Shown in pieces: positions 2,437 to 54,472 of a stretch of DNA of 64,000 nucleotides. The stretch's first letter is position 1, and every line of letters begins with the position of its first letter. Under the pieces are notes generated by a model. The model was not told the origin of the DNA and ran no database searches. It saw only the letters and a list, made by a program, of their open reading frames with translations. Origin of the DNA: a virus; the IMG/VR virus record IMGVR_UViG_3300047300_001121, positions 17,389 to 81,388 of that record; one strand, written 5' to 3'. The position numbers and the translations under genes are program-made.

Positions 2437-2551
2437 GCACAACCAAAACAAATTGTTGTTTTTACGCCACAACTGACCACTGAGTGCCGTTCTGGGCACA
2501 GGGTTTTCCCTGATTGACCAACAAAAACCCACTGATTTGGTTGGTCATTGA

Positions 2552-2581
2552 TTTGACCAATTTGTTTTGTTGCACAACAAT
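2552..2581 (+). promoter_or_regulatory. Early promoter
   Basis: TTGACC-17-AACAAT; same design near 4814 (TTGCAA) and 8098 (TTGACA). Confidence 0.55.
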
Positions 2582-2619
2582 CGGTTCATCACATCAACCA
2601 AACCACACAGGAGTTCGAC

Positions 2620-2763
2620 ATGTTCCCGGCAACCCGCAGCAACCAGATCACATACGCCTACTTTTGCCAGCTTGGCGGCCTGTCCAACCCGGCCACTTGG
2701 AGAATCGAGCGCCGCAACGGCTCGCACAGCTATTACACCTACCACCTCGTCAGCGTTCGTTAA
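2620..2763 (+). CDS. Small hypothetical protein (47 aa, absent from ORF track)
   Basis: AGGAG RBS; MFPATRSNQITYAYFCQLGG...; first gene after the promoter. Confidence 0.6.
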   Translation: MFPATRSNQITYAYFCQLGGLSNPATWRIERRNGSHSYYTYHLVSVR

Positions 2764-2773
2764 GGAGTTCTAC

Positions 2774-2998
2774 ATGATCGAACACAGCATCTCCGAATCC
2801 GTCATTGACGGCGCCGTCGACGTGATCATCAACACCCGCGACTTCTGCGGTGACGAGCGTGAGGCCGTGCGCGACTACTGCGCCGACCTAAAGCAGCCGC
2901 ACTGGCAGACCGTCTACCGCATCGCCAACTTCCGCGCCAACGCCCGCTGGAATGAGTTCCAGAAGAGCGCCGGCGTTGACCCCAAGTACACCTACTGA
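2774..2998 (+). CDS. Hypothetical protein
   Basis: AAGGAG RBS, high GC3. Confidence 0.7.
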   Translation: MIEHSISESVIDGAVDVIINTRDFCGDEREAVRDYCADLKQPHWQTVYRIANFRANARWNEFQKSAGVDPKYTY

Positions 2999-3005
2999 GA
3001 TTCAC

Positions 3006-3239
3006 ATGAGCTTCAAAAAACCCCGACTAAAAGCAAACCTTGCGGCTGAGGGATCCGTGTCAATTCCCGCAGAGTGGAGAGAACTTGATGGCCTGGTCCG
3101 AGCGGACATCCTGAAGGATTGGATCGGCATCCTGCAAATTGAGTACGACATCGCGGTTCTGGAGATGATTGATGGACCCGACCGAAGGCTTAAAGCTGCC
3201 ATCCTGAAAAAAAAGCTGGCTAAATTTGTTCAACACTGA
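3006..3239 (+). CDS. Hypothetical protein
   Basis: Tightly packed operon ORF. Confidence 0.6.
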   Translation: MSFKKPRLKANLAAEGSVSIPAEWRELDGLVRADILKDWIGILQIEYDIAVLEMIDGPDRRLKAAILKKKLAKFVQH

Positions 3240-17219: not shown

Positions 17220-18054
17220 CTCGCATCTCCTTGCGCGCCGTGGCGCGGTATGAGTTCCAGTCAAAGGGGAGCCAGCGCGCAGTCTCGGTGAGTCGGTCAA
17301 ACACACGGTCGCCGATTGCCGCACGGAACTCATCCTTGCCCAGGTTGGTCATCAGGATCACCGGCCGCATCGCGCGATACCGGCGGTCCAGCACGTCAAA
17401 CAAAATCGCCCGCTCGCCATCGGTGCCGTACTGCACGCCGATCTCGTCGATCACCAGCAGGGGCACACCCTGCAATCGCCCGAGCAGCTTGGCCTCCGTC
17501 ATCTCACTGTCGCGGCGCCAGGTGTCACGCAACATCCGGATCAGGTCCATCAGCGTCACGTAGACACCGACATGCCTGGGCAGGATGGCTTGCAGGATGG
17601 CGCCGGCGAGATGACTCTTGCCCGTCCCGGGTTGGCCAGACATGATCAGCGACGTGCCGATCTTCAGGTGCCGGTCGAAGTTCTCAGCGAATGCGCGGCA
17701 GACCTCGAGCGCCTTTTTCTGGCCGTCGTTTTCGGCGCGGTAGTTGTCGAGGGTCTTGCCAATGAAGCGGGGAGGGATGGCGGTCTGCGCCAGGGCCTCT
17801 TCGATTCTGGCCTTGAGCTCGTTCTGTCGCGCAACCTCAGCCTGCTTGACGGCCTCGGCCTCAGCATCCTTCGCGCATGCCGGGCAACCCATCCAGACGT
17901 CGCGAGGCGGGTTTGCGATCAGCAGCCGGTATCCGGTCGCGGTGTACTCGCCGTGCTTGTCGCAGACGCGAACGGAAGGCTCGAGGGCTTGGGTCGGCAG
18001 GGAGCCGCTGACCACGCGCCAGGGACCGATCGAATCAGGAGAAGCTGCCGTCAT
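17212..18054 (-). CDS. DnaC/IstB-like helicase loader
   Basis: Walker A GQPGTGKS, Walker B LLVIDE, RVFDRL. Confidence 0.9.
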   Translation of the reverse strand: MTAASPDSIGPWRVVSGSLPTQALEPSVRVCDKHGEYTATGYRLLIANPPRDVWMGCPACAKDAEAEAVKQAEVARQNELKARIEEALAQTAIPPRFIGKTLDNYRAENDGQKKALEVCRAFAENFDRHLKIGTSLIMSGQPGTGKSHLAGAILQAILPRHVGVYVTLMDLIRMLRDTWRRDSEMTEAKLLGRLQGVPLLVIDEIGVQYGTDGERAILFDVLDRRYRAMRPVILMTNLGKDEFRAAIGDRVFDRLTETARWLPFDWNSYRATARKEMRDA

Positions 18055-34779: not shown

Positions 34780-35039
34780 TCTACAACGTCGCTCAGGTAG
34801 CCGAGCTCCTCGGCTGCACCGAAGAAATCGTGGCCGAGCGCATCAACAACGGCGACCTGCCGGGCGTGAAGTTCGGCCGCAGCTGGGTCATCCCGGCTGA
34901 TGCGCTGCGTGAGCGCCTGAATCAGAAAGCGCTGGAGGAGGCGCGTGATCGGCGTGAGCCCAAGCGCATTTTGCGCAAGCGAAAGAAGCCGCCAGAACTG
35001 CCGCCTGGTCCGGGCTTCACCGGCATGGCTGGCTTTTAA
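34776..35039 (+). CDS. xis: Excisionase (HTH_17 type)
   Basis: VAELLG...GDLPGVKFGRSWVIP; converges on int. Confidence 0.8.
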   Translation: MIYNVAQVAELLGCTEEIVAERINNGDLPGVKFGRSWVIPADALRERLNQKALEEARDRREPKRILRKRKKPPELPPGPGFTGMAGF

Positions 35040-36175
35040 TCCAGGCGCCCAGCAAGATCATCAGCCCTGAATGAGGCGTAGCGCTTGGCCATCGAGCTGC
35101 CCGGCGCCCAGCCCATGATCTTCTCGATCTCGGCCTCTCGGAACAGCCAGTTCCCGCGCTTGTCGCGCATCTCGTACCACCGGCACGTCGCCTCGTGACG
35201 CAGGTCGTGCTCAGTGAGGTCTTCGCAACCAGCATAACCAAAGAGCAACCCGAACCGACGAGAGAGGCGCGTGGTGACCGTGTCGAGTGTTTCGGGGTCT
35301 TGGTCCCACCACGGAAAAATAAGCGCGCCTGGCTTTGATTTGGCTGCTCGCCGGGCCATCATCGGGCGGATCTCTTTGACCATGGGCACATCGCGCCAGG
35401 CCTCACGGCCATGCCACTGCTTTGAGCTCTTCACGCGCAACGAGCGCTCGCCCAGCCATTCGCTCTGTATCGTGTAAGCCTCGCGCAAGCGCAGGCCGGT
35501 GTGCAGGATCAGCAGGAAGAGGTCGCGCAGATCCTCGTCGGGCTCGAGTGCGCGCTGTCGGTCAGGACGTTTCTTGCCGGCCAGGGCGTCCATGATTTGC
35601 TCGAGCTCGCCCTTGCGCAGCCGGCGGTCACGCACCTTGTCTGATCTCGCGCGCTTGCCGAGCTTCTTTGCATCGGCTGCATCCTTGGCGCTGTAGCTGG
35701 CCGATCCGCGCGGCAGTGAGCGCAGCGGATTGCCAACCAGCAGATCGGGTGTCTTGCGCAGCTCCCAGTCAATGCAGCGGGCGAGGGCGCCGATGCGCTT
35801 ACGGATCGTGCCTGGCGCCAGGTTGGCCTTGAGCTTCATGTCGCGCACCCATTGCTCGCACCATGCATACGTGAGGCCGGACATCTTGAGCGAGCCGATC
35901 TCACCGGTGAGCACGTTCAGGATTTCGTCGTCCGCGGTCGAGAGCTGGCCATGTGCTTGCCACGCACGGATCACCGAGTGCAGTGTTTGCGTTGGCGCCT
36001 TCTTTTCATCGACCAGTCCAGCAGGAACGACGCCGGAGTCGAGCAGCTCGCGCGCTTGTGTGCCGTACGCGTTGGCTGCGTCTTCGTTGTTGAAGGTGAG
36101 GTACACCGGCTTGGGCAGCAGCCGATGTGTGATGCGCAGCTCAAAGTTGCCGCTCGGTGTTTGCCGCACTCCCAT
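35036..36175 (-). CDS. int: Tyrosine integrase
   Basis: TGLRLRE, HDLRH, MGW...RY catalytic signature. Confidence 0.95.
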   Translation of the reverse strand: MGVRQTPSGNFELRITHRLLPKPVYLTFNNEDAANAYGTQARELLDSGVVPAGLVDEKKAPTQTLHSVIRAWQAHGQLSTADDEILNVLTGEIGSLKMSGLTYAWCEQWVRDMKLKANLAPGTIRKRIGALARCIDWELRKTPDLLVGNPLRSLPRGSASYSAKDAADAKKLGKRARSDKVRDRRLRKGELEQIMDALAGKKRPDRQRALEPDEDLRDLFLLILHTGLRLREAYTIQSEWLGERSLRVKSSKQWHGREAWRDVPMVKEIRPMMARRAAKSKPGALIFPWWDQDPETLDTVTTRLSRRFGLLFGYAGCEDLTEHDLRHEATCRWYEMRDKRGNWLFREAEIEKIMGWAPGSSMAKRYASFRADDLAGRLD

Positions 36176-38694: not shown

Positions 38695-41600
38695 TCAGTC
38701 GACGCGCTCGAGCTCTTTCTTGACTGCGGCGCGGATCTCTTTCGGCGCGGTGGCGGCGACACGCTGAGCCTTGCTCTTGTTCGCTTCCTGCACGCGCTTG
38801 TTGATCTGGCCAGCATCGATGGAAATGCGGCTCTCTGGGTTGTTGCGGTTCCAGTCGGCGAGCTCTTGCTTGGCCTCTTCGATGAGGTCGGGCTTCTTCT
38901 CGATGCGGCCGCGGGCCCACTTGTCGGCGATCTCCGTCTCGCGCAGCTTGTTCTGTGTGATCAGGTTTTGCTGGGCGCCGGTTGCCTCCTGCACCTGGGC
39001 GACGGCCTTGGGTTGGAATCCAAGCGCCTTGGCAAACGCGTCGTACGCATCGGTGTCAACCACCTTGCGGCCCTTCTGGTCGCGGTAGTAGCCCATCGTG
39101 GCCATGTCGGCAGACTTGATCCAGTTCTGCGCAGCCACCGGTGCAACGGCCTCCGCCGCTTTGCCAAACTCGCCCTGGGCGATGCTTGCAACGCCGGTGC
39201 CGATGTTGGTGAAGAACGTGCCGGCCGGGCCCAGGATCTCGAGGTAGTCGCGGCCGTAGTCGCGCTTCTTCGTCAGCAGGCCGGTGCCTGGCACGAGGTT
39301 GCCCAGACCCATGCGGCCGGACAAGTCGATCGGCACACCAGGCAAGCCGGACAGCCCGCTCATCACGAACTCGGCGCCAGCCTGGCCCAGGATCGAGGCG
39401 AAGAATTCCTTCTTGGCCTGCTTGCTGTCGAAACTGCGGCCCAGCACGCGCTGCATGAAGCCGTCGATCACGTCGTCCAGATCATCGGCGCCAGGCATGC
39501 CAGTCAGACCGGAGGCCAGGAACAGCACGGCGAGCGCCAGGCCGACGGCCTTCTTGCCCTCGGGCCCGTTGCCCCACATGCGCCGCAGGAACTCGACGTA
39601 GCCGATCGAATACTGCTTGAACGTGAACAGGGTGCCACCCACCGCGCCACGCGCCCATGCCGGCTTGTTGCCCTTGTTGTAGACGCCCTGGGTCTCGGCA
39701 ATCGCCTTCTGGGCAAATGCCATCGGATCAGCCATGCCCTGGTCGCGCGCCAGCTTGTAGGCAGCGATGAAGGTCACGCGGCGGTTGAACTGTTCGGCCG
39801 CCGAGAACACCTTGCCCCAGCCCAGCTGCAGCTTGGCCATGGCATTGTTGATCTTGGCCGCGGCGTCGCCTGCTTTGGTGCCGTCACCGGATTGCAGCTG
39901 GCCCTTGCCCTGCGCCTGAGCCATCAGCTGGTGAACTTCCTGCGGGCTCACGATGCCTTCGTCTTCGGCGCGCTTCAGAGCGGCCGCGAGCTCGTCGTCA
40001 TTGCGGATGCCGCGGGATGCCATCTTCACGGCCTCGCCCATGCGCTTGGCTGCGCCGGCGGCGCCACCGAATTGCGACAGGTACGGCAGCGTCATGGTGA
40101 ACGGCTGGGTCAAGTTGACCATGGCCGATGCGATCGATCCGCCGATGAACTGCGTGAACAGCATGCCGCGGATGGCCTGAGCCTCTTCGCGCGGGTTCTG
40201 CACGTATTCCATTAGGCGCACAGCCGCGTCCTTGACGTCGCCGTCGCGCTGGTCAATGGCTTGCACAGAGCGGCCAATCTCGCCGGCATGCAGGTTGGTC
40301 GACGTCTGGCGGGCGTTGCTGTACACGAAGCCAGCGAGCACGCGGCCGACGTCTTCGCTGAAGCCGTTGATACCCTTGCGCTCAATCAGTCGCTTCATGG
40401 CCGAGCGGTTGGTCTTGGCCATCTTGAGGTACTGCTGGAACGCCTCTGACTTGGCGTCGACACCAGACTCTTCCAGGCCCAGCGATTCGCCGAACAGCGC
40501 CAGCGTCTCAGGCGTGACGCCACTGAAGAGCTTGTAGCTCTCCTGGCTCATCGTGCCCTGGGTGACGGTCGCGTCGGGGTACTGCTCTTGCATCTCGCGA
40601 GCCATCTTGTTGGCGTCGCGCTCGCTCTCGAACATCGAGAAGTAGAGCTGCTCACCATCTTTGCCAACGGCGTACACGGTGTACTCACCGAAGCGAGACA
40701 GCGGAGCGTAGCCGCGGGCCATCAAACCGATGGCCTGGCCAGCCTTTTCCTTGATGGCGCGCTTGCTGTCCTCGAGGACCTTGGCGCGCGTTGGCTGTTG
40801 CTCGATCAGCTGGTCGAGGTGAGCGATCATCGCGTTGAGGGCGCCGTCCAGATTCTTGGCGTCGAGCGCTTGCTGACGCACACCTTCGGAGTCGGTGCCC
40901 AGGTAGCGCAGCATGTCAGAAACAGCGAGGTCGGACAGGCTCTTGTTGGTCGCGCGACGGAACTCGCGGTACAGGCCGATCTGGCGGTCGTTCAGACCGA
41001 AGAGCTCTTTGAGCTCGTCGTTGGTGAACACGACGCCAGCCTTGTCGACGTCTTCGGTCTCGACGATGTTGCCTTCGTCATCGCGCGTGTACTTCAGCGT
41101 GCCGCCGAAAATCGGGTCACGCAGGGCCTTGACGTCTTCAGCCGACAGGGGCGTTTTGCCGATGTCCTTCCAGCTCTCGAGCTTGGGCAGGATGTTGGGC
41201 GCCAGGTCGGCGGCGCGGGTGGCGTAGACCGACACGTCGTTGATGAAGCGCTGCACGGCGTCGAACACGCGCTTGAACTGCGGGTGCTTCTGCGCCAGGT
41301 TGTACTGCGTGCCGATGGTGCGATCCCACCAGCTCAGCTTCTTGCTCGTCTTCAGCAGGTCGCCGAGGTTGTAGTTGGCCGTGACCTTCATTTGGCTCAG
41401 GTCATCGAAGTAGGGGCGGTCAGCGCTCTTGCGGATGTCCGGGTTGGTCGGGTCAAAATTGCCATTGTTGCCGATGGCGGATTTGATCTGCTCTGGGCGG
41501 AAGGCGATGTAGACGTTGCGAACCTCGAATCCTTTTCCGCCACGAATGATGACGCCATCGGCACCAGCTTTCTCTGCAGCCTCGATGATCTTGTCGTGGT

Positions 41601-44600
41601 TGTAATCAAACCACTTGTCCGGGGATCCAGTCGCCTTTCGCTCATACGGATTTTGCAGGCTCAGGTAAACCGGCATGATGTTGGCGCCACCATTGCCAAA
41701 GCGTGGATTCTCCTCGTCACCGAAGTTTGCGCCATCGGCCTGCTCTGCATAAACGCCAGCAGGAATTGGGCGGTTGGTGAAGAAGAACCCCTTATTTCCA
41801 CCTCGGTAAACGTAGTTCCGCCCGGACCGCTCGCGATCGAAAACGGAAAAGTCAGACGCTGTGCCGTGATACACCACCAGAGGATTGCCATCAGCATCCA
41901 CAACCTTCGAGTCGCCGAACCACTCCTTGAACTCGGGCGTGTCGGTCTGGCGATCGCGGCTGAACAGAGCAACGCCCTGGCCGACGGTCTCGCGCATCTT
42001 GTCGGTGACGTCGAAGCCGGACTGCTCGCCAGTCAGTCCGACGCCGGCGCTTCCGTCAACCTCTTTGATGACGGCGTCGCCGGTATATGCCAGCCGGTAT
42101 TCGTTCGCTTCTTTGCGGCTATCGGTTCGGAACAGGCGTTCACCGCTGTCCTCGTCAAACACGACATACCTGCCGCCAACATCTTCGCCGCCAAACACAA
42201 CGGAACTCAGCTTCTCGCCACCAAGCTTCGGCAGCAGCTTGCTGATGGCCTGCGGTACGATCTTGTCGTAGAAGGTCTTCATGCCTTCGCCGCCGACTCT
42301 GAGGCCCTCGCCGCTCAGTGTGCGGATGTCCTTCAGGTCTTCGTAATCAGGCGCGCCAGGCGTACCCTCGACTTGGCCTTCGCGTGAGTCCATCTTCTGG
42401 ACGATCTCTTTGCCGACGATGTCCTCGAGCTCTGCGGCAGTGAAGTCGCCGTTCTTGATGTTGCTGCCGCCGGCCATCACGTTGATGTAGTAGCCTTTGG
42501 CGGTCGGCTCGTAGCTGATGGAGTCAACCTGCTTGCTCAGGTCATAGCGATCGGCAGACTGCTCGCCGTTGACGAATGCGACTTTGTCGTAGCCACCCTC
42601 GACAGCCATCATCGCAATGCGCTTGAGTGCGAGGTTGAGCCAGCCTTCGGTCTTGGTGACGAAGGGAGCAAGCGGTACGCCCTGGTTGCTTCGGACAAGT
42701 TGCTCGGTGAGTTGCGATTTCTCGTCGGACAGCCTGTTCCACTCGGCTTGTAGCTCGGGCACATCTTCTGAATTTACCGTCTTCGCAATCTCGCGCAGAC
42801 GCGCAGTGATGGCCTGCATACGCGCCTCGATACCGGGGCGGTCAACTTCCTGCTTGAACCCCTTCTTCTTGCCCTCTTGACCCCAGTCCGATTGCAGCTC
42901 TTCCACGAAGAGCACGCGCTTGCCGTCGGCATCGGTGCGGTCGTTGACGCGGATGTGGGCGAGGATGTTGGGCTCATCCCAGTGGCTGGACAAATAGCCG
43001 CCGTTCATGCGATCGGCTTCGACAATCATGTTGTCGCCAGTCTCGCGCTCGCGGTCGGCGCGGAAGCGCTCAGCGCCTTCGCGGTCAAAAAAGCCTTCGC
43101 CTTCGATGTCACCATTCTCGTTGACGACACGATAGTCGCCAGCCTTCTCGGGCAGCGTGATCAGCAGCTCACGGTAGTTTTCGCCGCCTGGCAGGGTGTA
43201 AGCGATGTACTTGGCTGGGCGCTCAGGCTCAGGCGCGTATTCCTCGTCGGAGTCTTCCGGAATCCACACGCCTTCGTTGGGACTCTGCGTCAGCGTCACT
43301 TCGGAGATCTTCACGCCGCTGTCGTCAAGGTACGCGACCAGGTCGTCTTTGGTAAGCTTGTTCTTGCCCTGCAAATCCAAGAAGTCTTTGATACCGGACC
43401 ACTCAATTTCGTCGGCTTTAATACCGAGCTTCGATGCGTTGGCGGTGAGCCATTGCTTCCACGCCGGCGCGGCCATGGTGGCCAGGCGCTGCGGCACTTG
43501 CTCGATGGCGCGTTGCAGTTGGCTGTAGAAAGCCGGGCGCGCCGGCGATTTCAGGACTTGTCCGGCTGCTCCGGCTCGAACTTCGCCGCCTGCATCCGAT
43601 ACACCTCGTGCGCCGTCTTGCCCGAGGTCGCCTCGGAGGCGCGAAGCTGCTCTTTCAAGTCCTTGACGTAGGGGTGATCCGAACCATGCTTCGCCTCCAG
43701 GCGCGCGATCTCCGCCTTCAGCGATTCGATCAATGTACTCACGATAGTTTTCCTTCCCGACAACAACAGTGTCGTAGTTCTGCATGGCCGCAAAGGCCAC
43801 TCCATCCATGCCACGAACTTCCGCAGCGATGTCGTTGAGCAGCTCACGCTTCTCCTGGATCGCACGCTCAATGCCGCCAGGTGCCAACAACTCGTCGCGC
43901 AGATCCTCGTCCCAGCGCATCGAGATCTCGGGCACGTATTGCAAACGCACACCGATAAACGATTCGCCCGTCACGCCTTTCGGGGTCACGCGGGGATCCA
44001 CCGCCATTGTAAATCCATCCTGCCCGCGAGACGTGAATTTCTCGAGAATCGGCATGGCAGTCGCGAGGTCTCGTTGCGACTTGAAGTAGATCTCGACGCC
44101 AGGGCGAGCATTGGCGCTGTCGTCCTTCGGGCCCAGCACCTTTGACACAAAGATGTCGTACTGATTGTTCTCTTCAGCAATGCGAGCGATCTCGGCCATC
44201 ACCATGGACGGGTCATGCTGGCCTTTGGTCGCAGTCCATTCGGTGTCGAACGAGGCCTCGACCGTGCCGCCGTACAGACCCGAAGTGGGCATGACGCGGG
44301 CCGCCACAACGCTGTCGTCGCCAACCAGAATGGAGAGCACGCGGGCCTGGGCGACGGATGCCTCGTCGTTGTTGGGCACCTTCTCGCCTTGCTGGATGCT
44401 CCAGCCGGCCAGGTAGCGCTCAACAGGCGTGGCTTCGATGTTCTCTTCAAACGAGCCGCCTTCGCCGGTCTTGCTGGTCCAACCCTTTTGACCCCAGAGC
44501 TCCTTCTCGGCGAACCAGGCGATGGCTTGTAGATCTGGCGGGGTGACATTGATGCCGCGTTCCGCAAGCGCCCGGGAGACTTTGTCCATCACATCTGCGC

Positions 44601-47600
44601 CGAAGCCAAAGGCACCGGTCACGCGCGATCCGTCGGCATTCCACACGCCGGACACACCAGTCTCGGCGACGGGCGGGATGCGCGGCAAATCAGCGCCACG
44701 CACCATGTTCGCGGCGCGGCGTAGCATGCGGGCGGCCCAGACGTCGATGGTGGCCATGTTGGACTGGCCAATCAGGTTCAGCGCGAAGTTGCGGGCCTTG
44801 GGTGCCTGACCGGGCTCGATCACGCGCCACATGTCGACCAGCGCCTTCATGGCGTTGGTGGAGTTCATGCCGTACAGCTTGCCGCTGATCTGACGAATCT
44901 TGTCGGCGGCCGGGTACTTGCTGGCGTCCTTGCCTTCGTCGATGTAGGCGGAGAACTTGGCGAGCTGGTCGTTGAAGTCGCCGGCCATGAAGCGACGCAT
45001 GACGTCGAGCGAGAATCGCCAGTTGGTGTCGACCGGCGTGTTGGGGGACGTTGCACCCAGCAAGTCAGCCAGCAGATCGCCGGAGCCGCCGTATTCGCGA
45101 CGCAGCACTTCGGCGACGTTGCGATACCAGGTCTGGTGACCAATGATGATCTGAGCGTTCTTGTCGCCCTTGGCGGCGCGCTCGTAGATGTCAGAAACCA
45201 GGCCCTCGAACTTGTCGGCAACCTTGCCCAGCCACACGGTATCGGTCTTTGCCGGCGCGCGATTGCGGCCCGGGGGCACGTTGAACGCGTAGGGCAGGGC
45301 CTGGAACTTGGGCTTCTCGGATCCGGGGATCGGGTTGCCTTCGTCGTCCTGCTTGAGCTCGATGCCAACCACAGTCAATGGCGCCCAGCCTTGAGTGGTC
45401 GGGAATGCCTTCTTGATGCGGCGAGCCTCGTCGACAATAGCCTTGACCTGCTTCTTGCTCAGGTTGAGCTCTTTGGCGTCGGCGTCGATCGCTTCGATCT
45501 CTTTGACATCAAGGCGCGCAGCCTTGGCGCGCACGCGCTGCTCGCGGTCAATATCAAGCTTGTAGTCACGAGCCGTACTCTTGCGGACGTCAGCCTCATT
45601 GACCGAGAACACGCCGTTGTTGAAATTGGCGGATTTCAGTTGCTCAGGATTGAAAGCAACGAAGACGTCTGACGGATCGTCGATGTACGAGCTGTAGCCA
45701 GGGCCTGAATCGACGACGTTGAGAATGATCGCGCCGTCGGCGCCCCAGCGACGACCCTCGCGCACGACGTCATCGGTGGTCATGCCGATGCTGTCCTCTT
45801 CCTCGTAGCTTGATGCGCGACCTGCTTCTACCTGGCGGTCGGCATCCTCCTCCGTGTACACGTAGTCACCGGTGGGCTCGCCGTTCTCATCGAGCATTCG
45901 GTACATCGGCTGTTCGCGCTCGCCATTCCACAGGGCGCCGTTGAAGTCTTCTTCGTTGGCGCTGCGGATGTTGACGAACAGGGCGTAGTAGCCCGAAACG
46001 TCTTCGCCGCTCGGCGCTTCATCGCCGTAGTTATCGAGCAGGTGCTCCTCGGCTTCCGCGCGGGTGTCATAGACGTTATCCATGTACCCGTCTTTCGAGT
46101 ACACCTCGAACTTGCCATCGTCGGTCTCGAAGATGTCGTAGCCATCGTCGAGCAGCTCCTGCACCGTAGCTTTGTCGCGGAGCTCGATCTCGCCACCGCG
46201 ACGGCTGTAGTAGGTCTGCGCCATAGCGAGATTCGGCGTCGTGAAGATGCCGAGGTCGCCACGCTCTTTGCCGCCGGGCGTCTTGAAGTAGTTGAAGCCG
46301 CCCTTGTCGGTGCCGTGGTAGACGACCATCGGCTCGCCGTTGGCAGTGACAACCTTCGACACGTCAAGGTTGGTTGCCCAAACGCCACCGTCCTTGTGTG
46401 CCTGCTCCCAGTCGCCGAACCACTGCTTGAAGCTGGGCGTGCGCACTTGCACCCACTGGCGCTCGCTGAGCATGGTGTCGGTGCCATCAGGCGCCTTCAT
46501 CCATTGGTCTGTCCCTTTGTACTTGGCCTCGACTTCGGCGTATTCGCGCTTGGCGATTTCGACATCGCTTTCGCGCGCCGGGCTGAAGCGAATGGCGGAA
46601 CCGATGCGCTCGAGCTCAGCGTTGGCCTGTTCACGGCTATCAACCGGAACGGTCAGCGTGCCGGCGCGCAGCGTGGCGCCAGGGATGGCGTCGACGTTGA
46701 TGTCGGCGATCTCCTTCGACATGAGGCCCTTTTTGATCGGCTCTTGCTTGACCTCGGGGGCTTCTGCGCCCGGGATCTTTTCGCCGTTCTGGATCGAGCC
46801 CATTTGGCCCAGGTACTCAGGCGTGATGGAGCGCTTGCCCAGCATGATCACCACGCCGGGCTGCGTGCCGTCGCGGCGGTCCAGGTATCCGTCGTAGCCG
46901 CTGTCGAGCACGGCCGACTCGAAGGCCTCGAGGCTCTTGCCTTTGCGCAAGCCCAGAGGGTCCTTGTTCATGTCGTAGACGTTGGTCAACGTCGTGCGGT
47001 GGGCATGCGTGCCCAGGCCCGGAAGCGGCGTGATGCCGGTGCCCTTGTCGACATAGAAGTAGATGCGGTCGCGCAGGCGCTCGTCGGCGGCGTTTTGGAA
47101 CTGCTCGCGGTTGGCATCTTGCAGGCCGGCGCCGTGTGTGGCGGACGACAACACCTTGCGCGGTTGCTGGCTGAAGTGATAGCCGGTGAGCGTGAGGCCC
47201 TCGGGTCGGTCTTCGCTCTTCTTAATTTTCTGCTCGGCCTTCAGCTTCTCAGCAGCCATGGCGCGCTGAGTGATGCCCGAGTCCTTGAGGTAGCCGGCCA
47301 TTGCATCGACAAACGCGGCACGCACCTCATCGAGGTCCTTGACGAATCGGTCGGCCTGGTAGCCGGGCTGATTGAGTGACTTGACCAGGCGATCGATCAC
47401 GCGCTTCACCTGGGTGGCCAGCTTGGCGATGATGCCCTTGGCCTCGGCGCCGTTGTCGGCTTTGATCTTGGCAAACACCTCGAGCCAGAATGCCTTGTGC
47501 TTGAGCAGGTTGCCGCCCAGGTCGGAGACAAGCTCCTCGAGCTCGCCACCTTGCTCCTCAGACAGCGCGGCATCACCGCGTTGCGCGGCCTTCTCGGCGC

Positions 47601-50600
47601 CGTAGTAGTTCTCGCGGAAGGCTTGCGGATTGCTGACCTTGGTGCGCACCACGGCAGCAATGGCGTTCCAGGCTTCTGGATTGGTGTCGCGCAGGGTGTG
47701 GAAGAACTCGTGGCCAAACACGGCCAGCGGATTCACCGTGGTTTCGCTTGCCACGAAGATGGTGTCGGGGCGGCCAGAGAACACGAAGCCGTCTCCGATG
47801 CGACCATCCTGAGCTTCGTAGAACACGACCTGCTTACCCAGCAACCCGGCAACCTTCTGGATCATGTCGGCTTCGGCTTGCGACAGCGCACGAGGCTCGT
47901 CGCCGCGCTTGGCGCTGGTATTCTTCGGCAGCTCGGCCGGCTTGAGGATCTTGAGGTTGTGCTGCTTGCCGTTGGCCTTGAAGCTGAAGATCTTGGCTTC
48001 CTCAGCCTTTTCTTCTTTGGTGAAGTTCTCGGCCTTGCCAGCGGCAACAGCATCCGACAGCGGCTTCTTCGCGGCACGCGACTTGGACCAGGCCTTGAAC
48101 TCGTCCTGGGTCATCTCGGTGATGGCGCCCAGACCAGTCCAGCCCGGCTCGTAGTTGGCCAGGTAGCCTGCACGAGCATCGGCTTCGGTGGTGAAGCCCA
48201 TCATCACTTTGTGCTCGTCGAACGACCCGTCCTGATTGACCTGGTCGATGACGTAGATCTTGTCGCTGTCTTTGCGCGGACCAAGGAAGACGTCGAGCTT
48301 GTCGCCGTCAGCGCCGACCGTGCCCTGGAACTCACCGTAGTGGTAAGCCATCTTGGTTTCCCACGGCGTACCATCGGGAGACGTGCCACGGCGGATCGAG
48401 CCCTGCGGGTTCTCGATCTTGATCTTCATTCCGTTGAGCTCGATGACGTCGGACTTCTTGTAATTGCCGGCGGCGATCTGAGCCTCGGTCGGCTCAAGCA
48501 AATCGTTCTTCGGGCTGGCGGCCGCGGTATGAGCCAGGGCGTCGATGCGATCGTTGATGGCCTTGCGTGCGAGTTGCGCATCGGCAGCGCCGTCCAGCTT
48601 GAATTTCTGGCCGGTCTTGCTGTTGACCATCCAGAACTCATTGCCGTCACGCTGCACGGTCTCGAAGCCGTTCTCGGCGAGCTGTTGCACCACAGCCTTG
48701 CGCTTGCGCATAACGGCAGGGCCTGCACCGGCGGGGGTCTCGACGCGCGGCGCCTTCACCTCGGTCATGCTGCCAATACCGCCTTGCTCCACGGCGCGCG
48801 CAGCATCCAACGGAGTGTTGCCTTGCGCTACGTTTTGTTGCGCGACAGGCGTGGCAGTAGGCTCAGGGGCGGCTGCGGGCTGCTCCCGAGTGGTGGGTTG
48901 TTGGGTGGTGAGACCTCGCTGCGGACCAGGCAGAGCCTTGGGCCCGGGCAACATGTTGTCGACGCGCACAGCTTCGGCGTCGATGATGTTGGGGTCGAAG
49001 AACTGGCCGTTGAGATCGGCCGGAGCGACTGCGGTGCCGGCAGTCGGCGGAACGGCGAGGGCGGTGCCAGGCTGCTTCGGCGCTTCGTTTTGCATGACGA
49101 AGCCGGTGCCGGACTTGGCGGTGGCGAGCACTTGCTCGACCTGGTTGATCGCCTTTTCGCGGATCTGCGGATCCAGATTCGGGTTGCGCGCGATGCCCAG
49201 GGCGTACAGGAATTCGTTGCTGGTCTCCGGGCCAAAGCCGCGGATCTTGTCGAGCATGCCTTCCTGGTTCAGGTCGGCGTAGACCGCCGCAGCGCGTGCG
49301 GCGATTGGATCTTGATTCACCGCATCCTGTGCGGCTTGTGCAGCTTGCCCGGCCTGCTCGACAGCACCGGTGGCCACCACGGCGCGCGAGAGCACGCTGC
49401 CAGGCTTCTGCGCCTGGTCGGCAACGGATTGCAGCGGGTTGGGTGCGCTGGGCTTGGCCACAAAGCCGCCGCCAGCACCAATGGGTCCGCCAACAACAAA
49501 GCCACCCAGGAAGTCGCCAGCGGTGTTGCGCAGGGCATCCTGGCCCGGCTCGCGGCCCAGGGCGATATTCTCGCCGACGTTCTGGCCAACCTTCTCCGAT
49601 GTTTCTTGCAAGCCTTCAGCGGCTGCGCCACCAACACCGCCAATTGCGGCGCGGCCAGCGCGTGATGCCGCCGAGTTGCCGAGCATAGTCGAGATGCCTT
49701 TGCCCACCAACAGGTCCTCGATGACCTTGGTGTTGAAGGCACCGCCTGCGGCACCAGCAATGGCGGAGAGGCCGCCGGCCCAGCGGGCAGCACTGTTGAT
49801 CACGGCGTTGCGAGCTTGCTGCTGGTCACCGCTGCGCTTGAATGCTTCAGCATAGACGGGCACGCTTTGCAGCAGCTGCTCGTGTGTCATGCCTTGGATG
49901 GTTTGGGCGGTGGTCTGACGAACTTCGTCGGCGGCCGCGCCACCGGTCATTGCGCCACCCACACCAGAGCCGGTGACTCGAGCGGCCATAGCAGCCGATT
50001 GCGCGGCTTGCGTGAGCTCGGCAGCCTTGGCAGTGTCGCCAGCCAATTCAGCGGCGCGTGCGGCCTTGGACAGCGATGCAACGCGTTGTGCCGGGCCCAG
50101 GGCAGGCAGCAGGAAGGAGGCAAGCGAGCCAAAGCCGTTGGCGGCCATCATGCCCCAGCCTTCGCCGCTACCCGGCAGCTGCGCGTCACCGCTCAGTAAG
50201 TCGAGCACACTGCCTTCGACGCCGGCCTCTTGGCGAGCGCGCTGGCCACCAGCGGTCATGCTGTCACGAATCGCGCCAGACACCGGCTTGAGCGGGTTGA
50301 AGCCTTCGTAGTCCTCGGTGCCGGTCGCCTTGTTGGCGATAGCAGCCATGCCCTCGCCGAACATTTGCGCAATACTGCCCACGCCTTCAACGGCAGAGGC
50401 GGCAACTTCTTTGGCGTAATCTCCGGCGGTCGCACCAGGTCCGCGCGGATTGACGTTGCTGTACCAGGAGCCGGACTTGCCGACGCTGCGGCCGGTCTTG
50501 TTCAGGATTGCCGGGACATAGGCCTGCGTCTCGGCCGGCATGTAGCGCAGCCAGGCGTCAGGCGTTCCGTTCTTTTCGGCAGTGGCCAGGGCAGTGCGCA

Positions 50601-50982
50601 GGCGACCAGGCCCGGCGTTGTAGGCGGCGAGCGCCAGGGCGGGGTTGCCACCGAAATCCTCGTACTGCTTTTTGAGGTACGCCTCGCCCAGCTTGATGTT
50701 GTACTCGCGATCGGTGCGGTACTTCAAATCGTCGAACTCGAGGCCGGCCAGACGTGCAGCCTCAGGTGCGGTGTCTGGCATCACTTGCATGATGCCGATC
50801 GCACCCTTCTTGCTGGTGACCGGGGTGCCATCAGCTTTGAGTTGCTTCCCTCCGGATTCCTGCTTGCGCAGGGCGTCACCGACTTGCTGAACAAAACCGT
50901 CGGCAGTGTCGGGTTGCGTCGACGGCTCCACGGTTGCGTTGGGAGCGATGTTCAGCAAAAGGGAAAAGTCTTGGTCAGCCAT
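38695..50982 (-). CDS. Giant polyvalent ejection/internal virion protein (SLT, pyrophosphatase-like, HExxH, ART-like x3, glycosylase-like, SAM-lyase-like, PLxRFG)
   Basis: QESGG/GIMQVMP/YNAGPG; ENPQGS/GADGDKLDV/FDEHK; HEFFH; YHGT x2 plus YHFS; ATSP/TIDVW; VEELQSD; PLSRFG. Confidence 0.9.
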   Translation of the reverse strand: MADQDFSLLLNIAPNATVEPSTQPDTADGFVQQVGDALRKQESGGKQLKADGTPVTSKKGAIGIMQVMPDTAPEAARLAGLEFDDLKYRTDREYNIKLGEAYLKKQYEDFGGNPALALAAYNAGPGRLRTALATAEKNGTPDAWLRYMPAETQAYVPAILNKTGRSVGKSGSWYSNVNPRGPGATAGDYAKEVAASAVEGVGSIAQMFGEGMAAIANKATGTEDYEGFNPLKPVSGAIRDSMTAGGQRARQEAGVEGSVLDLLSGDAQLPGSGEGWGMMAANGFGSLASFLLPALGPAQRVASLSKAARAAELAGDTAKAAELTQAAQSAAMAARVTGSGVGGAMTGGAAADEVRQTTAQTIQGMTHEQLLQSVPVYAEAFKRSGDQQQARNAVINSAARWAGGLSAIAGAAGGAFNTKVIEDLLVGKGISTMLGNSAASRAGRAAIGGVGGAAAEGLQETSEKVGQNVGENIALGREPGQDALRNTAGDFLGGFVVGGPIGAGGGFVAKPSAPNPLQSVADQAQKPGSVLSRAVVATGAVEQAGQAAQAAQDAVNQDPIAARAAAVYADLNQEGMLDKIRGFGPETSNEFLYALGIARNPNLDPQIREKAINQVEQVLATAKSGTGFVMQNEAPKQPGTALAVPPTAGTAVAPADLNGQFFDPNIIDAEAVRVDNMLPGPKALPGPQRGLTTQQPTTREQPAAAPEPTATPVAQQNVAQGNTPLDAARAVEQGGIGSMTEVKAPRVETPAGAGPAVMRKRKAVVQQLAENGFETVQRDGNEFWMVNSKTGQKFKLDGAADAQLARKAINDRIDALAHTAAASPKNDLLEPTEAQIAAGNYKKSDVIELNGMKIKIENPQGSIRRGTSPDGTPWETKMAYHYGEFQGTVGADGDKLDVFLGPRKDSDKIYVIDQVNQDGSFDEHKVMMGFTTEADARAGYLANYEPGWTGLGAITEMTQDEFKAWSKSRAAKKPLSDAVAAGKAENFTKEEKAEEAKIFSFKANGKQHNLKILKPAELPKNTSAKRGDEPRALSQAEADMIQKVAGLLGKQVVFYEAQDGRIGDGFVFSGRPDTIFVASETTVNPLAVFGHEFFHTLRDTNPEAWNAIAAVVRTKVSNPQAFRENYYGAEKAAQRGDAALSEEQGGELEELVSDLGGNLLKHKAFWLEVFAKIKADNGAEAKGIIAKLATQVKRVIDRLVKSLNQPGYQADRFVKDLDEVRAAFVDAMAGYLKDSGITQRAMAAEKLKAEQKIKKSEDRPEGLTLTGYHFSQQPRKVLSSATHGAGLQDANREQFQNAADERLRDRIYFYVDKGTGITPLPGLGTHAHRTTLTNVYDMNKDPLGLRKGKSLEAFESAVLDSGYDGYLDRRDGTQPGVVIMLGKRSITPEYLGQMGSIQNGEKIPGAEAPEVKQEPIKKGLMSKEIADINVDAIPGATLRAGTLTVPVDSREQANAELERIGSAIRFSPARESDVEIAKREYAEVEAKYKGTDQWMKAPDGTDTMLSERQWVQVRTPSFKQWFGDWEQAHKDGGVWATNLDVSKVVTANGEPMVVYHGTDKGGFNYFKTPGGKERGDLGIFTTPNLAMAQTYYSRRGGEIELRDKATVQELLDDGYDIFETDDGKFEVYSKDGYMDNVYDTRAEAEEHLLDNYGDEAPSGEDVSGYYALFVNIRSANEEDFNGALWNGEREQPMYRMLDENGEPTGDYVYTEEDADRQVEAGRASSYEEEDSIGMTTDDVVREGRRWGADGAIILNVVDSGPGYSSYIDDPSDVFVAFNPEQLKSANFNNGVFSVNEADVRKSTARDYKLDIDREQRVRAKAARLDVKEIEAIDADAKELNLSKKQVKAIVDEARRIKKAFPTTQGWAPLTVVGIELKQDDEGNPIPGSEKPKFQALPYAFNVPPGRNRAPAKTDTVWLGKVADKFEGLVSDIYERAAKGDKNAQIIIGHQTWYRNVAEVLRREYGGSGDLLADLLGATSPNTPVDTNWRFSLDVMRRFMAGDFNDQLAKFSAYIDEGKDASKYPAADKIRQISGKLYGMNSTNAMKALVDMWRVIEPGQAPKARNFALNLIGQSNMATIDVWAARMLRRAANMVRGADLPRIPPVAETGVSGVWNADGSRVTGAFGFGADVMDKVSRALAERGINVTPPDLQAIAWFAEKELWGQKGWTSKTGEGGSFEENIEATPVERYLAGWSIQQGEKVPNNDEASVAQARVLSILVGDDSVVAARVMPTSGLYGGTVEASFDTEWTATKGQHDPSMVMAEIARIAEENNQYDIFVSKVLGPKDDSANARPGVEIYFKSQRDLATAMPILEKFTSRGQDGFTMAVDPRVTPKGVTGESFIGVRLQYVPEISMRWDEDLRDELLAPGGIERAIQEKRELLNDIAAEVRGMDGVAFAAMQNYDTVVVGKENYREYIDRIAEGGDRAPGGEAWFGSPLRQGLERAASRLRGDLGQDGARGVSDAGGEVRAGAAGQVLKSPARPAFYSQLQRAIEQVPQRLATMAAPAWKQWLTANASKLGIKADEIEWSGIKDFLDLQGKNKLTKDDLVAYLDDSGVKISEVTLTQSPNEGVWIPEDSDEEYAPEPERPAKYIAYTLPGGENYRELLITLPEKAGDYRVVNENGDIEGEGFFDREGAERFRADRERETGDNMIVEADRMNGGYLSSHWDEPNILAHIRVNDRTDADGKRVLFVEELQSDWGQEGKKKGFKQEVDRPGIEARMQAITARLREIAKTVNSEDVPELQAEWNRLSDEKSQLTEQLVRSNQGVPLAPFVTKTEGWLNLALKRIAMMAVEGGYDKVAFVNGEQSADRYDLSKQVDSISYEPTAKGYYINVMAGGSNIKNGDFTAAELEDIVGKEIVQKMDSREGQVEGTPGAPDYEDLKDIRTLSGEGLRVGGEGMKTFYDKIVPQAISKLLPKLGGEKLSSVVFGGEDVGGRYVVFDEDSGERLFRTDSRKEANEYRLAYTGDAVIKEVDGSAGVGLTGEQSGFDVTDKMRETVGQGVALFSRDRQTDTPEFKEWFGDSKVVDADGNPLVVYHGTASDFSVFDRERSGRNYVYRGGNKGFFFTNRPIPAGVYAEQADGANFGDEENPRFGNGGANIMPVYLSLQNPYERKATGSPDKWFDYNHDKIIEAAEKAGADGVIIRGGKGFEVRNVYIAFRPEQIKSAIGNNGNFDPTNPDIRKSADRPYFDDLSQMKVTANYNLGDLLKTSKKLSWWDRTIGTQYNLAQKHPQFKRVFDAVQRFINDVSVYATRAADLAPNILPKLESWKDIGKTPLSAEDVKALRDPIFGGTLKYTRDDEGNIVETEDVDKAGVVFTNDELKELFGLNDRQIGLYREFRRATNKSLSDLAVSDMLRYLGTDSEGVRQQALDAKNLDGALNAMIAHLDQLIEQQPTRAKVLEDSKRAIKEKAGQAIGLMARGYAPLSRFGEYTVYAVGKDGEQLYFSMFESERDANKMAREMQEQYPDATVTQGTMSQESYKLFSGVTPETLALFGESLGLEESGVDAKSEAFQQYLKMAKTNRSAMKRLIERKGINGFSEDVGRVLAGFVYSNARQTSTNLHAGEIGRSVQAIDQRDGDVKDAAVRLMEYVQNPREEAQAIRGMLFTQFIGGSIASAMVNLTQPFTMTLPYLSQFGGAAGAAKRMGEAVKMASRGIRNDDELAAALKRAEDEGIVSPQEVHQLMAQAQGKGQLQSGDGTKAGDAAAKINNAMAKLQLGWGKVFSAAEQFNRRVTFIAAYKLARDQGMADPMAFAQKAIAETQGVYNKGNKPAWARGAVGGTLFTFKQYSIGYVEFLRRMWGNGPEGKKAVGLALAVLFLASGLTGMPGADDLDDVIDGFMQRVLGRSFDSKQAKKEFFASILGQAGAEFVMSGLSGLPGVPIDLSGRMGLGNLVPGTGLLTKKRDYGRDYLEILGPAGTFFTNIGTGVASIAQGEFGKAAEAVAPVAAQNWIKSADMATMGYYRDQKGRKVVDTDAYDAFAKALGFQPKAVAQVQEATGAQQNLITQNKLRETEIADKWARGRIEKKPDLIEEAKQELADWNRNNPESRISIDAGQINKRVQEANKSKAQRVAATAPKEIRAAVKKELERVD
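43551..43742 (-). CDS. Nested out-of-frame 63-aa helical protein inside the giant gene
   Basis: GGGAAGGA RBS + GTG; GC3 54/63 versus 25/63 in the host frame (hand count). Confidence 0.7.
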   Translation of the reverse strand: MSTLIESLKAEIARLEAKHGSDHPYVKDLKEQLRASEATSGKTAHEVYRMQAAKFEPEQPDKS

Positions 50983-53965: not shown

Positions 53966-54472
53966 TCAGGTGTGAAGGCAGTAATTGCCTCCCGTGCGCT
54001 TCATGCCAAAGTGGGCATACAAGCGCTCAGCTGCCTCGCTTACACCCGACGTGTTGCCAGACATCAGGTGCTTTGCACCCACTTCCTGGGCGCGCTCAAA
54101 AAACTTCTTCATCAGCAGGTATGCAGCGCGTCCTCCGCGATGCTTGGGTGCAACGTAGAAAATCTCGTCGCGCAACGTCACCTCGGGTCCAAACCACGGG
54201 TGACTCACCAGCGTGCCGAGCATGCCGGCAATCTCGCCATTGCGCTCAGCCAGGTACAGCACGCGACTTGGATCGTGACCGAGCCACATGCCGACTCCAT
54301 GGATCGCCATCTCCGGGTCGAACTGGTAGTAACGAAAGTCGGTCTCGGCGTGCATGGCTGCGCACAACTTGAAAACGGCCAAGCGATCCTGCTCGACAGC
54401 AGGACGCACCGTCGTGCGCCCGGTGGGCGTACTGACGCTGGCCGAGGACTCGTTGATCAAAGCAAACCCCAT
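53966..54472 (-). CDS. GNAT acetyltransferase (virion module)
   Basis: FYVAPKHRGG...AERLY..FG. Confidence 0.85.
   Translation of the reverse strand: MGFALINESSASVSTPTGRTTVRPAVEQDRLAVFKLCAAMHAETDFRYYQFDPEMAIHGVGMWLGHDPSRVLYLAERNGEIAGMLGTLVSHPWFGPEVTLRDEIFYVAPKHRGGRAAYLLMKKFFERAQEVGAKHLMSGNTSGVSEAAERLYAHFGMKRTGGNYCLHT

Follow-up and report, generated by a model that had tools for sequence, protein, structure and literature searches.

A small gene nested in a giant virion gene

The stretch of DNA analysed here, hereafter the window, comprises 64,000 nucleotides and corresponds to positions 17,389 to 81,388 of the IMG/VR virus record IMGVR_UViG_3300047300_001121, a complete genome of 81,388 bp from a freshwater metagenome. 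The window carries a giant gene for a polyvalent virion protein and, within it, a small open reading frame (ORF) in another frame of the same strand, which is the subject of this study. The features on which the argument is built are the following (window coordinates; aa, amino acids).

38695..50982 (-): giant polyvalent virion (ejection-type) gene, from the ORF list and its translation; 4095 aa, 12.3 kb
43744..45582 (-): upstream module before the small ORF (giant aa 1801-2413), delimited by tblastn block boundaries and alignment A3
43758-43751 (-): Shine-Dalgarno (SD)-like sequence GGGAAGGA, in which AAGGA is separated from the GTG by 8 nt
43551..43742 (-): nested small gene in the +1 frame relative to the giant ORF, with a GTG start, 63 aa and a TGA, from sequence and translation
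43552..43743 (-): giant-frame reading of the same bases (aa 2414-2477), a G/A/R-rich tail and linker
43537..43557 (-): junction motif VLKSPAR (giant aa 2476-2482), which contains the TGA of the small gene

The small ORF lies wholly inside 38695-50982, on the same strand and in another frame, which is the layout of an embedded pair of the Rz/Rz1 type. An earlier inspection of the bare nucleotides (hereafter the sequence-only reading) had pointed it out as an ORF with a ribosome-binding site and a GTG start in a second same-strand frame, beginning at the end of the upstream module and stopping at the VLKSPAR junction. All of this was confirmed: the 63-aa translation is exactly the one given then, the start falls in giant codon 2414, and the stop in giant codons 2477-2478 lies within VLKSPAR. 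In tblastn, the downstream-module homology of two related loci, L001 and L008 (related loci are referred to by such numbers), begins at giant aa 2469-2474.

The G+C contents at codon positions 1/2/3 (GC1/2/3) are 0.61/0.40/0.86 in the small frame and 0.86/0.60/0.40 in the giant frame over the same bases, the values for the whole giant gene being 0.65/0.44/0.78. The GC3 counts made by hand in the sequence-only reading were correct (54/63 in the small frame, 25/62 in the giant frame). Scanning the 12.3-kb gene in sliding 150-nt segments revealed no second flip of this kind (GC3 of at least 0.8 in the alternative frame and at most 0.55 in the giant frame), and the other long alternative-frame ORFs of the giant gene display a plain shadow composition. 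The high GC3 of the small frame was rejected as proof of ancestry, as it marks the frame that is more constrained now and not the older one. The local RNA around the small-gene start is not unusually structured (z 0.17). Scanning positions 43300-44300 for sigma-70 promoters and terminators found none; in view of the missing promoter, the likely template for translation of the small gene would be the giant gene's own mRNA. Among public sequencing runs, one DNA holder, probably the source run, and no RNA holder were listed, a result that has no bearing on expression.

Evidence for an independent start and for selection on the small frame

The wider relatives were collected by scanning IMG/VR with an alignment of the upstream module. 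This gave 441 relatives, of which the best 80 were examined (31-72% module identity). Three of the 80 contigs stop before the end of the module, so that counts for the module together with the small gene rest on 77.

The start position is ATG in 12/12 close relatives and in 73 of the 77 wider relatives, and TTG in one more. The T of this codon is at the same time the third base of a giant-frame codon for D, N, Y or R. It is T in 13/13 loci; T-ending codons of that kind average 31% in these genes and are the rarer choice in most loci. The next giant codon varies (E, A, D, G), yet its first base is always G. Similarly, AAGGA or AGGAG is kept 8-10 nt upstream of the start despite differing giant residues (GKENY vs QYQEK), and an SD-like score was obtained in 59/77 wider relatives. 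The inner ORF thus possesses a conserved start and a ribosome-binding site of its own, as expected for the inner member of an embedded pair. In four relatives (L001, L004, L006 and L011) the small frame is closed by a stop 0-6 codons before the ATG, with a TAA directly before it in L011. These stops rule out that the frame is entered by frameshifting further upstream.

Substitutions were compared in pairs of sequences at least 60% identical. Nested or partly nested loci had 394 changes that are silent in the small frame and alter the giant frame, and 237 of the reverse type; for the free-standing copies described below, the counts were 400 and 145, respectively. The ratio of the proportions of non-synonymous and synonymous differences (pN/pS, NG86 method) was 0.68 for nested and 0.33 for free-standing small frames, and 1.09 and 1.30, respectively, for the giant frame. 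The close nested pair L010 and L012 differs at 3/3/14 sites at codon positions 1/2/3. Wherever a related locus has a start codon and readable frames, whether it is nested or not, the small-frame core displays a normal coding composition. Nested copies down to 35-39% identity retain the start codon, the SD sequence and the open frame. The sequence-only reading had proposed to compare dN/dS between the frames; the substitution pattern favours the small frame (pN/pS of 0.68 vs 1.09 in nested loci). Stops or frameshifts in the small frame, which it had considered fatal to its own case, were not encountered, the frame being open in close and wider relatives. On this comparative evidence the small ORF is a real gene, whose translation must begin at the internal start codon.

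Selection on the giant frame over the same bases

The giant-frame sequence WFGSPLR at 43666-43686 belongs to a conserved motif, W-F-G-x-P-(V/I/L)-R (WFGxPxR). The residues W633, G635, P637 and A645 (numbering of alignment A3) are invariant in A3, and the W, G and P are present in 12/12 module sequences. In the model of the module, the motif is followed by a predicted helix at giant aa 2438-2449 (pLDDT about 70) and then by disorder.

The chance that the giant frame stays free of stops, given the small protein, was estimated by synonymous resampling and amounts to 0.000-0.06 in 10/13 nested loci; the giant frame is in fact open in all 13/13. Furthermore, WFGxPxR needs CAT, TAT or TTT and GGT at sites where C-ending codons or GGC are usual, and the T is present in 16/16 nested or partly nested loci. 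In the free-standing loci L021, L025 and L026, CAC and GGG are found at the WFG site, and L026 also has a TGA in the giant frame. The open giant frame and the kept WFGxPxR motif argue that the stretch is dual-coding and that the giant reading is no passive shadow. The sequence-only reading had described it as an R/G/A-rich 'shadow' linker. The richness in G, A and R and the low GC3 hold, but it is not a mere shadow, as the invariant W..G.P is kept by means of codons that are rare elsewhere. By these measures both frames are maintained by selection, and the stretch is truly dual-coding, with the small frame more constrained.

The small protein and its homologues

The small protein has 63 aa, a mass of 7.1 kDa and an isoelectric point of 6.3, and helices are predicted at residues 4-19, 24-39 and 44-51. 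The AlphaFold2 model displays three helices with a pLDDT of 88.4. Searching with the 63-aa peptide had been suggested in the sequence-only reading. An exhaustive profile-free HMMER search gave 58 matches, around 50 of them proteins of 54-200 aa aligned from residue 1, with the conserved core MxTLIExLxxxIxRLEAKHGSDxP(Y/F)VKxLKEQLRA. Ten clusters of small homologues were looked up; all ten are metagenomic and unnamed, and the protein atlas contained only unnamed small clusters. Comparison with Pfam, PHROGs and NCBIfam gave nothing, or coiled-coil noise below the threshold (DUF1843, DUF1192). No match at E <= 0.001 was obtained when the model was compared with the PDB by Foldseek. The best hit of a wider fold search (Z 5.4) reflects a common helical arrangement, and no fold was assigned. 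The peptide gave no significant tblastn match in cultured phage records. One further candidate, L013, was discarded as a small-gene locus, being a spurious 19-residue match in the contig scan.

At its C-terminus the family displays at least five interchangeable tail types, namely QFSTQEEFDEALGGWQSRVGRIK, ETEEDGIKAEALRR, DELHKLATEKGMQSPEF, GQYRIAKFKHQN and LDLQNLPFDPA. They were seen in L005, L007, L014, L015, L017 and others (small-ORF codons ~60-100), the first type in nested and free-standing genes alike.

The DUF7178 module and its downstream gene

The module upstream of the small ORF (~670 aa) is a conserved block of giant aa ~1801-2470, of which the part before the small ORF ends in YDTVVVGKENY(REY). 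It consists of a helical DUF7178 part and two ferredoxin-like alpha/beta domains (model pLDDT 68). The labels 'glycosylase-like' and 'SAM-lyase-like' given to it by the sequence-only reading found no support. Pfam recognises only DUF7178, the C-terminal half has a generic tandem ferredoxin-like fold in the fold search, and the phage SAM lyase 6zm9 came at rank 22 (Z 7.5, rmsd 3.5 over 114 residues), on a par with numerous unrelated folds and with the helical N-terminal half barely covered.

The profile of the small-protein core matches the +1 frame exactly at the end of the module in 77/77 relatives, down to 31% module identity, and the small protein and the module diverge in parallel. The small gene always starts within the final codons of the module ORF, inside Y-D/N-E. 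Three arrangements of the module stop were encountered. In 41 of the 77 relatives the module is a separate ORF, mostly of ~890-1100 codons from stop to stop, which ends 26-161 nt after the ATG of the small gene and is followed by another large gene. Another 33 have a module frame that stays open across the entire small gene; about 8 of these frames end just beyond it, giving a gene of ~900-1090 codons, and the rest continue into further modules. The downstream modules differ between relatives, and the break lies at the end of the small gene. The small gene therefore sits directly downstream of the module in conserved synteny, which is the layout of a toxin-immunity cassette, and its presence in 77/77 relatives supports a conserved two-gene cassette.

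In a tree of the module C-terminal domain the three states of overlap change at least 8 times. Nested forms are found on deep branches and most adjacent forms in one large clade, the sole outgroup being a very long branch; the small-protein and module trees give no decision as to whether adjacency or nesting came first. The proposal of the sequence-only reading, that a two-gene cassette was captured in-frame, stands as far as the conserved two-gene unit is concerned (77/77). The direction from captured to nested does not follow from trees in which the states change at least 8 times and nested forms lie deep. Its expectation of strict co-occurrence with the module holds in one direction, since all 77 module relatives have the small ORF, but free-standing copies occur with no module within ~3 kb.

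No tblastn match at E <= 1e-5 was found in 50,697 cultured-phage records for either the module of the window or its divergent 941-aa relative L052; one tblastn search against cultured phage records matched the downstream module only. A distant homologue of the C-terminal domain was found on a plasmid (L030, Caballeronia grimmiae NZ_CP084275.1, 124253-125200). It is a free-standing protein of 315 aa with 32% identity to the double ferredoxin-like domain. Its gene shortly precedes a group of genes in a type VI secretion locus that encode pentapeptide-repeat, DUF3540, DUF4150 (PAAR-like) and VgrG proteins.

Free-standing copies of the small gene

Eight metagenome loci belonging to three clades carry the small gene with the giant frame closed and no module within ~3 kb. 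In these loci, homology to the window sets in at the start codon (3 nt earlier in L025 and L026), and L022 and L018/L020 retain 35-175 nt of the module 3' end as debris. These genes are under clear purifying selection. Their neighbours include an outer-membrane beta-barrel gene and a lipoprotein gene (both L017), McrBC (L015, 2454-3737) and a HipA-like kinase (L018, 1-429), and phage-type integrases are encoded near the small gene in L019 (5214-6182) and L021 (5265-6182). The McrBC, HipA-like and integrase neighbours suggest islands or prophage remnants.

As a separate observation, L018 and L020 are 96.6% identical over 2.3 kb. With differences at 16 of ~160 sites, their small-gene cores exceed the average divergence several-fold, and recombination or diversifying change may have acted there.

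The giant gene and its surroundings

The domains of the giant protein recognised by Pfam, all above the cut-offs, are SLT (aa 37-138), InPase (aa 833-967), two stretches of ART-PolyVal, and DUF7178 (aa 1929-2087). Its gene neighbours are tail-fibre, internal-virion and virion-structural genes. With several conflict-related domains in one polypeptide and a virion gene neighbourhood, the product is a polyvalent protein as conceived for phages and conjugative elements by Iyer et al. (2017; PMC5512222). Three further features belong to this region.

41950..43536 (-): next module of the giant protein (aa ~2483-3011), whose relatives on Pseudomonas plasmids are annotated as LPD23 domain-containing
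35036-36175 (-): phage integrase gene, 2.5 kb past the 3' end of the giant gene
53966-54472: predicted acetyltransferase, between tail-fibre and virion-structural genes

The integrase near the giant gene suggests that the phage is probably temperate. Furthermore, a motif of the form (I/V/A)(R/L/K)(K/F)S..R recurs at the module boundaries of the giant protein: IKKSEDR (47206-47226), IRFSPAR (46573-46593), KSTAR (45550-45582), VLKSPAR (43537-43557), ALFSRDR (41950-41970) and IRKSADR (41416-41436), all on the (-) strand. At the junction that follows the small gene, L003, L004 and L006 have (K/R)YSL(K/R/S). These boundary motifs could be cleavage sites or recombination joints.

Discussion

The stretch at 43551-43742 is dual-coding, and the small gene is probably the partner that constantly accompanies the DUF7178 module on its downstream side. 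In such an arrangement, a 63-aa three-helix protein would be translated separately from the late mRNA of the giant gene, at the internal site (AAGGA, 8 nt, GTG). The giant frame provides, from the same bases, the tail of the ~670-aa DUF7178 module and a flexible linker to the next module. The stop of the module wanders, lying 26-161 nt past the small-gene start in phages where the two genes are neighbours, lying just past the small gene in others, or being lost. Where it is lost, as in this phage, the module continues across the small gene and is joined to additional modules in a polyvalent protein.

From the invariant synteny we infer that the small protein may act with the module. That it would do so in the producing cell, as a binding partner which keeps the module inactive or export-competent until packaging, is proposed here tentatively, with a confidence that falls somewhat short of even. 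A more specific version, put forward in the sequence-only reading, makes the small protein an antidote or immunity protein by which an effector destined for injection would be silenced while still in the producing cell. Taken by itself, this version appears doubtful; the small protein could alternatively be a chaperone or cofactor of the module. Still a little less likely is an extended version of the antidote idea, according to which the bare gene would have been taken up by bacteria or prophage remnants as 'orphan immunity' against incoming phages, and module-specific partner genes would be hidden in the linkers of polyvalent proteins. Complex prediction for the small protein with the whole upstream module gave 0.19, 0.69 and 0.01 in three runs, with controls not folded, and is evidence neither way.

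Several observations weigh against the reading of a translated small gene that is the partner of the module. The small gene of the window uses GTG and is devoid of the C-terminal tail found in many relatives. The module itself has no assigned function in Pfam, NCBIfam or the PDB and no sequence relative in the PDB. The plasmid homologue of its C-terminal domain has a different tail and no nested ORF. Physical overlap alone keeps the small gene and the module end together, and part of the 77/77 synteny could therefore be historical. Finally, the presence of free-standing copies in varied neighbourhoods indicates that the protein is useful without the module in cis, which weakens the chaperone or cofactor reading. 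These copies fit 'orphan immunity' better than a chaperone, and they fit equally well an autonomous accessory protein held in place by the overlap.

The latter is the strongest of the competing explanations, and a possible one, although the partner-gene reading is preferred. According to it, the small protein is a moron-like accessory unrelated to the module and is held at the module 3' end because the overlapping frames cannot be separated by recombination. The purifying selection on free-standing copies in unrelated neighbourhoods is what such a protein would display, and the C-terminal tails are modular and variable, as might be expected of it. It is less easily reconciled with the parallel divergence of the two proteins and with the small ORF being present in all 77 module relatives over 31-72% identity, 41 of which have an easily lost overlap of 26-161 nt.

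It is improbable that the second frame is a relic, i.e. a former gene that was swallowed as a linker and is no longer translated in nested loci, where only the giant frame would matter. Such a history would account for the GTG and the missing tail in the window, and selection on the giant frame itself is in line with it. However, nested copies at 35-39% identity would hardly have kept start, SD sequence and open frame, close nested pairs mostly show changes silent in the small frame (3/3/14 in L010 vs L012), and the composition follows the small frame in every nested locus.

Programmed +1 frameshifting, by which ribosomes would produce a truncated giant isoform ending in ...PDKS and no separate small protein, is very improbable. 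An upstream SD-like element can stimulate +1 shifts, as in prfB, and in the window no stop interrupts the alternative frame over the 70 codons that precede the GTG (43551-43952). In the relatives this frame is closed 0-6 codons before the ATG, and the pattern is not that of a programmed frameshift. In addition, the start codon is conserved, adjacent-gene and free-standing homologues begin at the same Met, and the composition flips only from the start codon on. Two compensating frameshift errors in the assembly of a metagenome-derived genome can practically be dismissed, since an independent Logan contig from the probable source run is identical over the stretch at a depth of 23 with zero indels, and the two-frame layout recurs in dozens of independent contigs.

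The partner-gene reading can be compared with several known systems. The Rz/Rz1 spanin genes of phage lambda belong to a type of gene pair for which embedded, overlapped and separated architectures are known. Here as there, a larger gene completely encloses a small one that is on the same strand, in the +1 frame, and has a start of its own, and related phages show the pair embedded, partly overlapped or separate; the Rz and Rz1 products are thought to work together, a partnership that in the present case is proposed from sequence. The outer gene described here differs in being a 12.3-kb multi-module virion gene, with the inner gene at a module junction and not in a lysis cassette, and the inner product is predicted to be a soluble helical protein and not a lipoprotein. 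In Bacillus subtilis, comS is nested out of frame in srfAB, and is likewise a tiny gene with an internal start inside a giant multi-module gene. It differs from the present gene, which follows one module in every relative examined, in being lineage-restricted and in having no functional connection with the module around it.

Toxin-immunity and effector-chaperone cassettes are found among polymorphic toxins, type VI secretion system effectors and tail fibres with their Tfa chaperones. The cassette described here resembles them in that a small gene overlaps the end of a large enzyme-like gene in conserved synteny, with orphan copies of which some lie beside defence genes. The resemblance concerns gene layout. 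The small protein, in contrast, is not hypervariable, its conservation being similar to that of the module.

The giant protein is a textbook case of the polyvalent proteins of Iyer et al. (2017; PMC5512222), with SLT, InPase and two ART-PolyVal domains in a phage of the terminase-portal class. The published concept does not extend to partner genes that are nested where modules meet, and the words 'overlapping' and 'frameshift' do not occur in that text. As in the classical overprinted genes of small viruses, such as B, K and E of phiX174 (reviewed in PMC8227390 and PMC3494269), one stretch is read in two frames and the less constrained frame is compositionally odd and largely disordered. In contrast to those, the present case concerns a large double-stranded DNA phage with no obvious pressure on genome size, and the overlap seems to have arisen from a wandering stop and gene fusion and not from de novo birth of the small gene. 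Literature searches found no published description of the nested small gene.

In double-stranded DNA phages, few long genes nested on the same strand have solid comparative support. The gene described here is kept in every examined relative of a module that is present in at least 441 uncultured phage contigs. As standard gene callers disallow fully nested genes on the same strand, no annotation pipeline would call it. The labile overlap, from a module stop 26 nt past the small-gene start to full fusion, offers a concrete route by which the fusion of polyvalent genes may swallow a neighbouring gene alive. The 'linkers' of giant virion proteins can therefore not safely be regarded as unconstrained, and every enzyme-like module may be accompanied by a small partner protein. 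If the partner proves to be an antidote or a chaperone, it would give a handle on the activity of the DUF7178 module and on the control of injected phage effectors.

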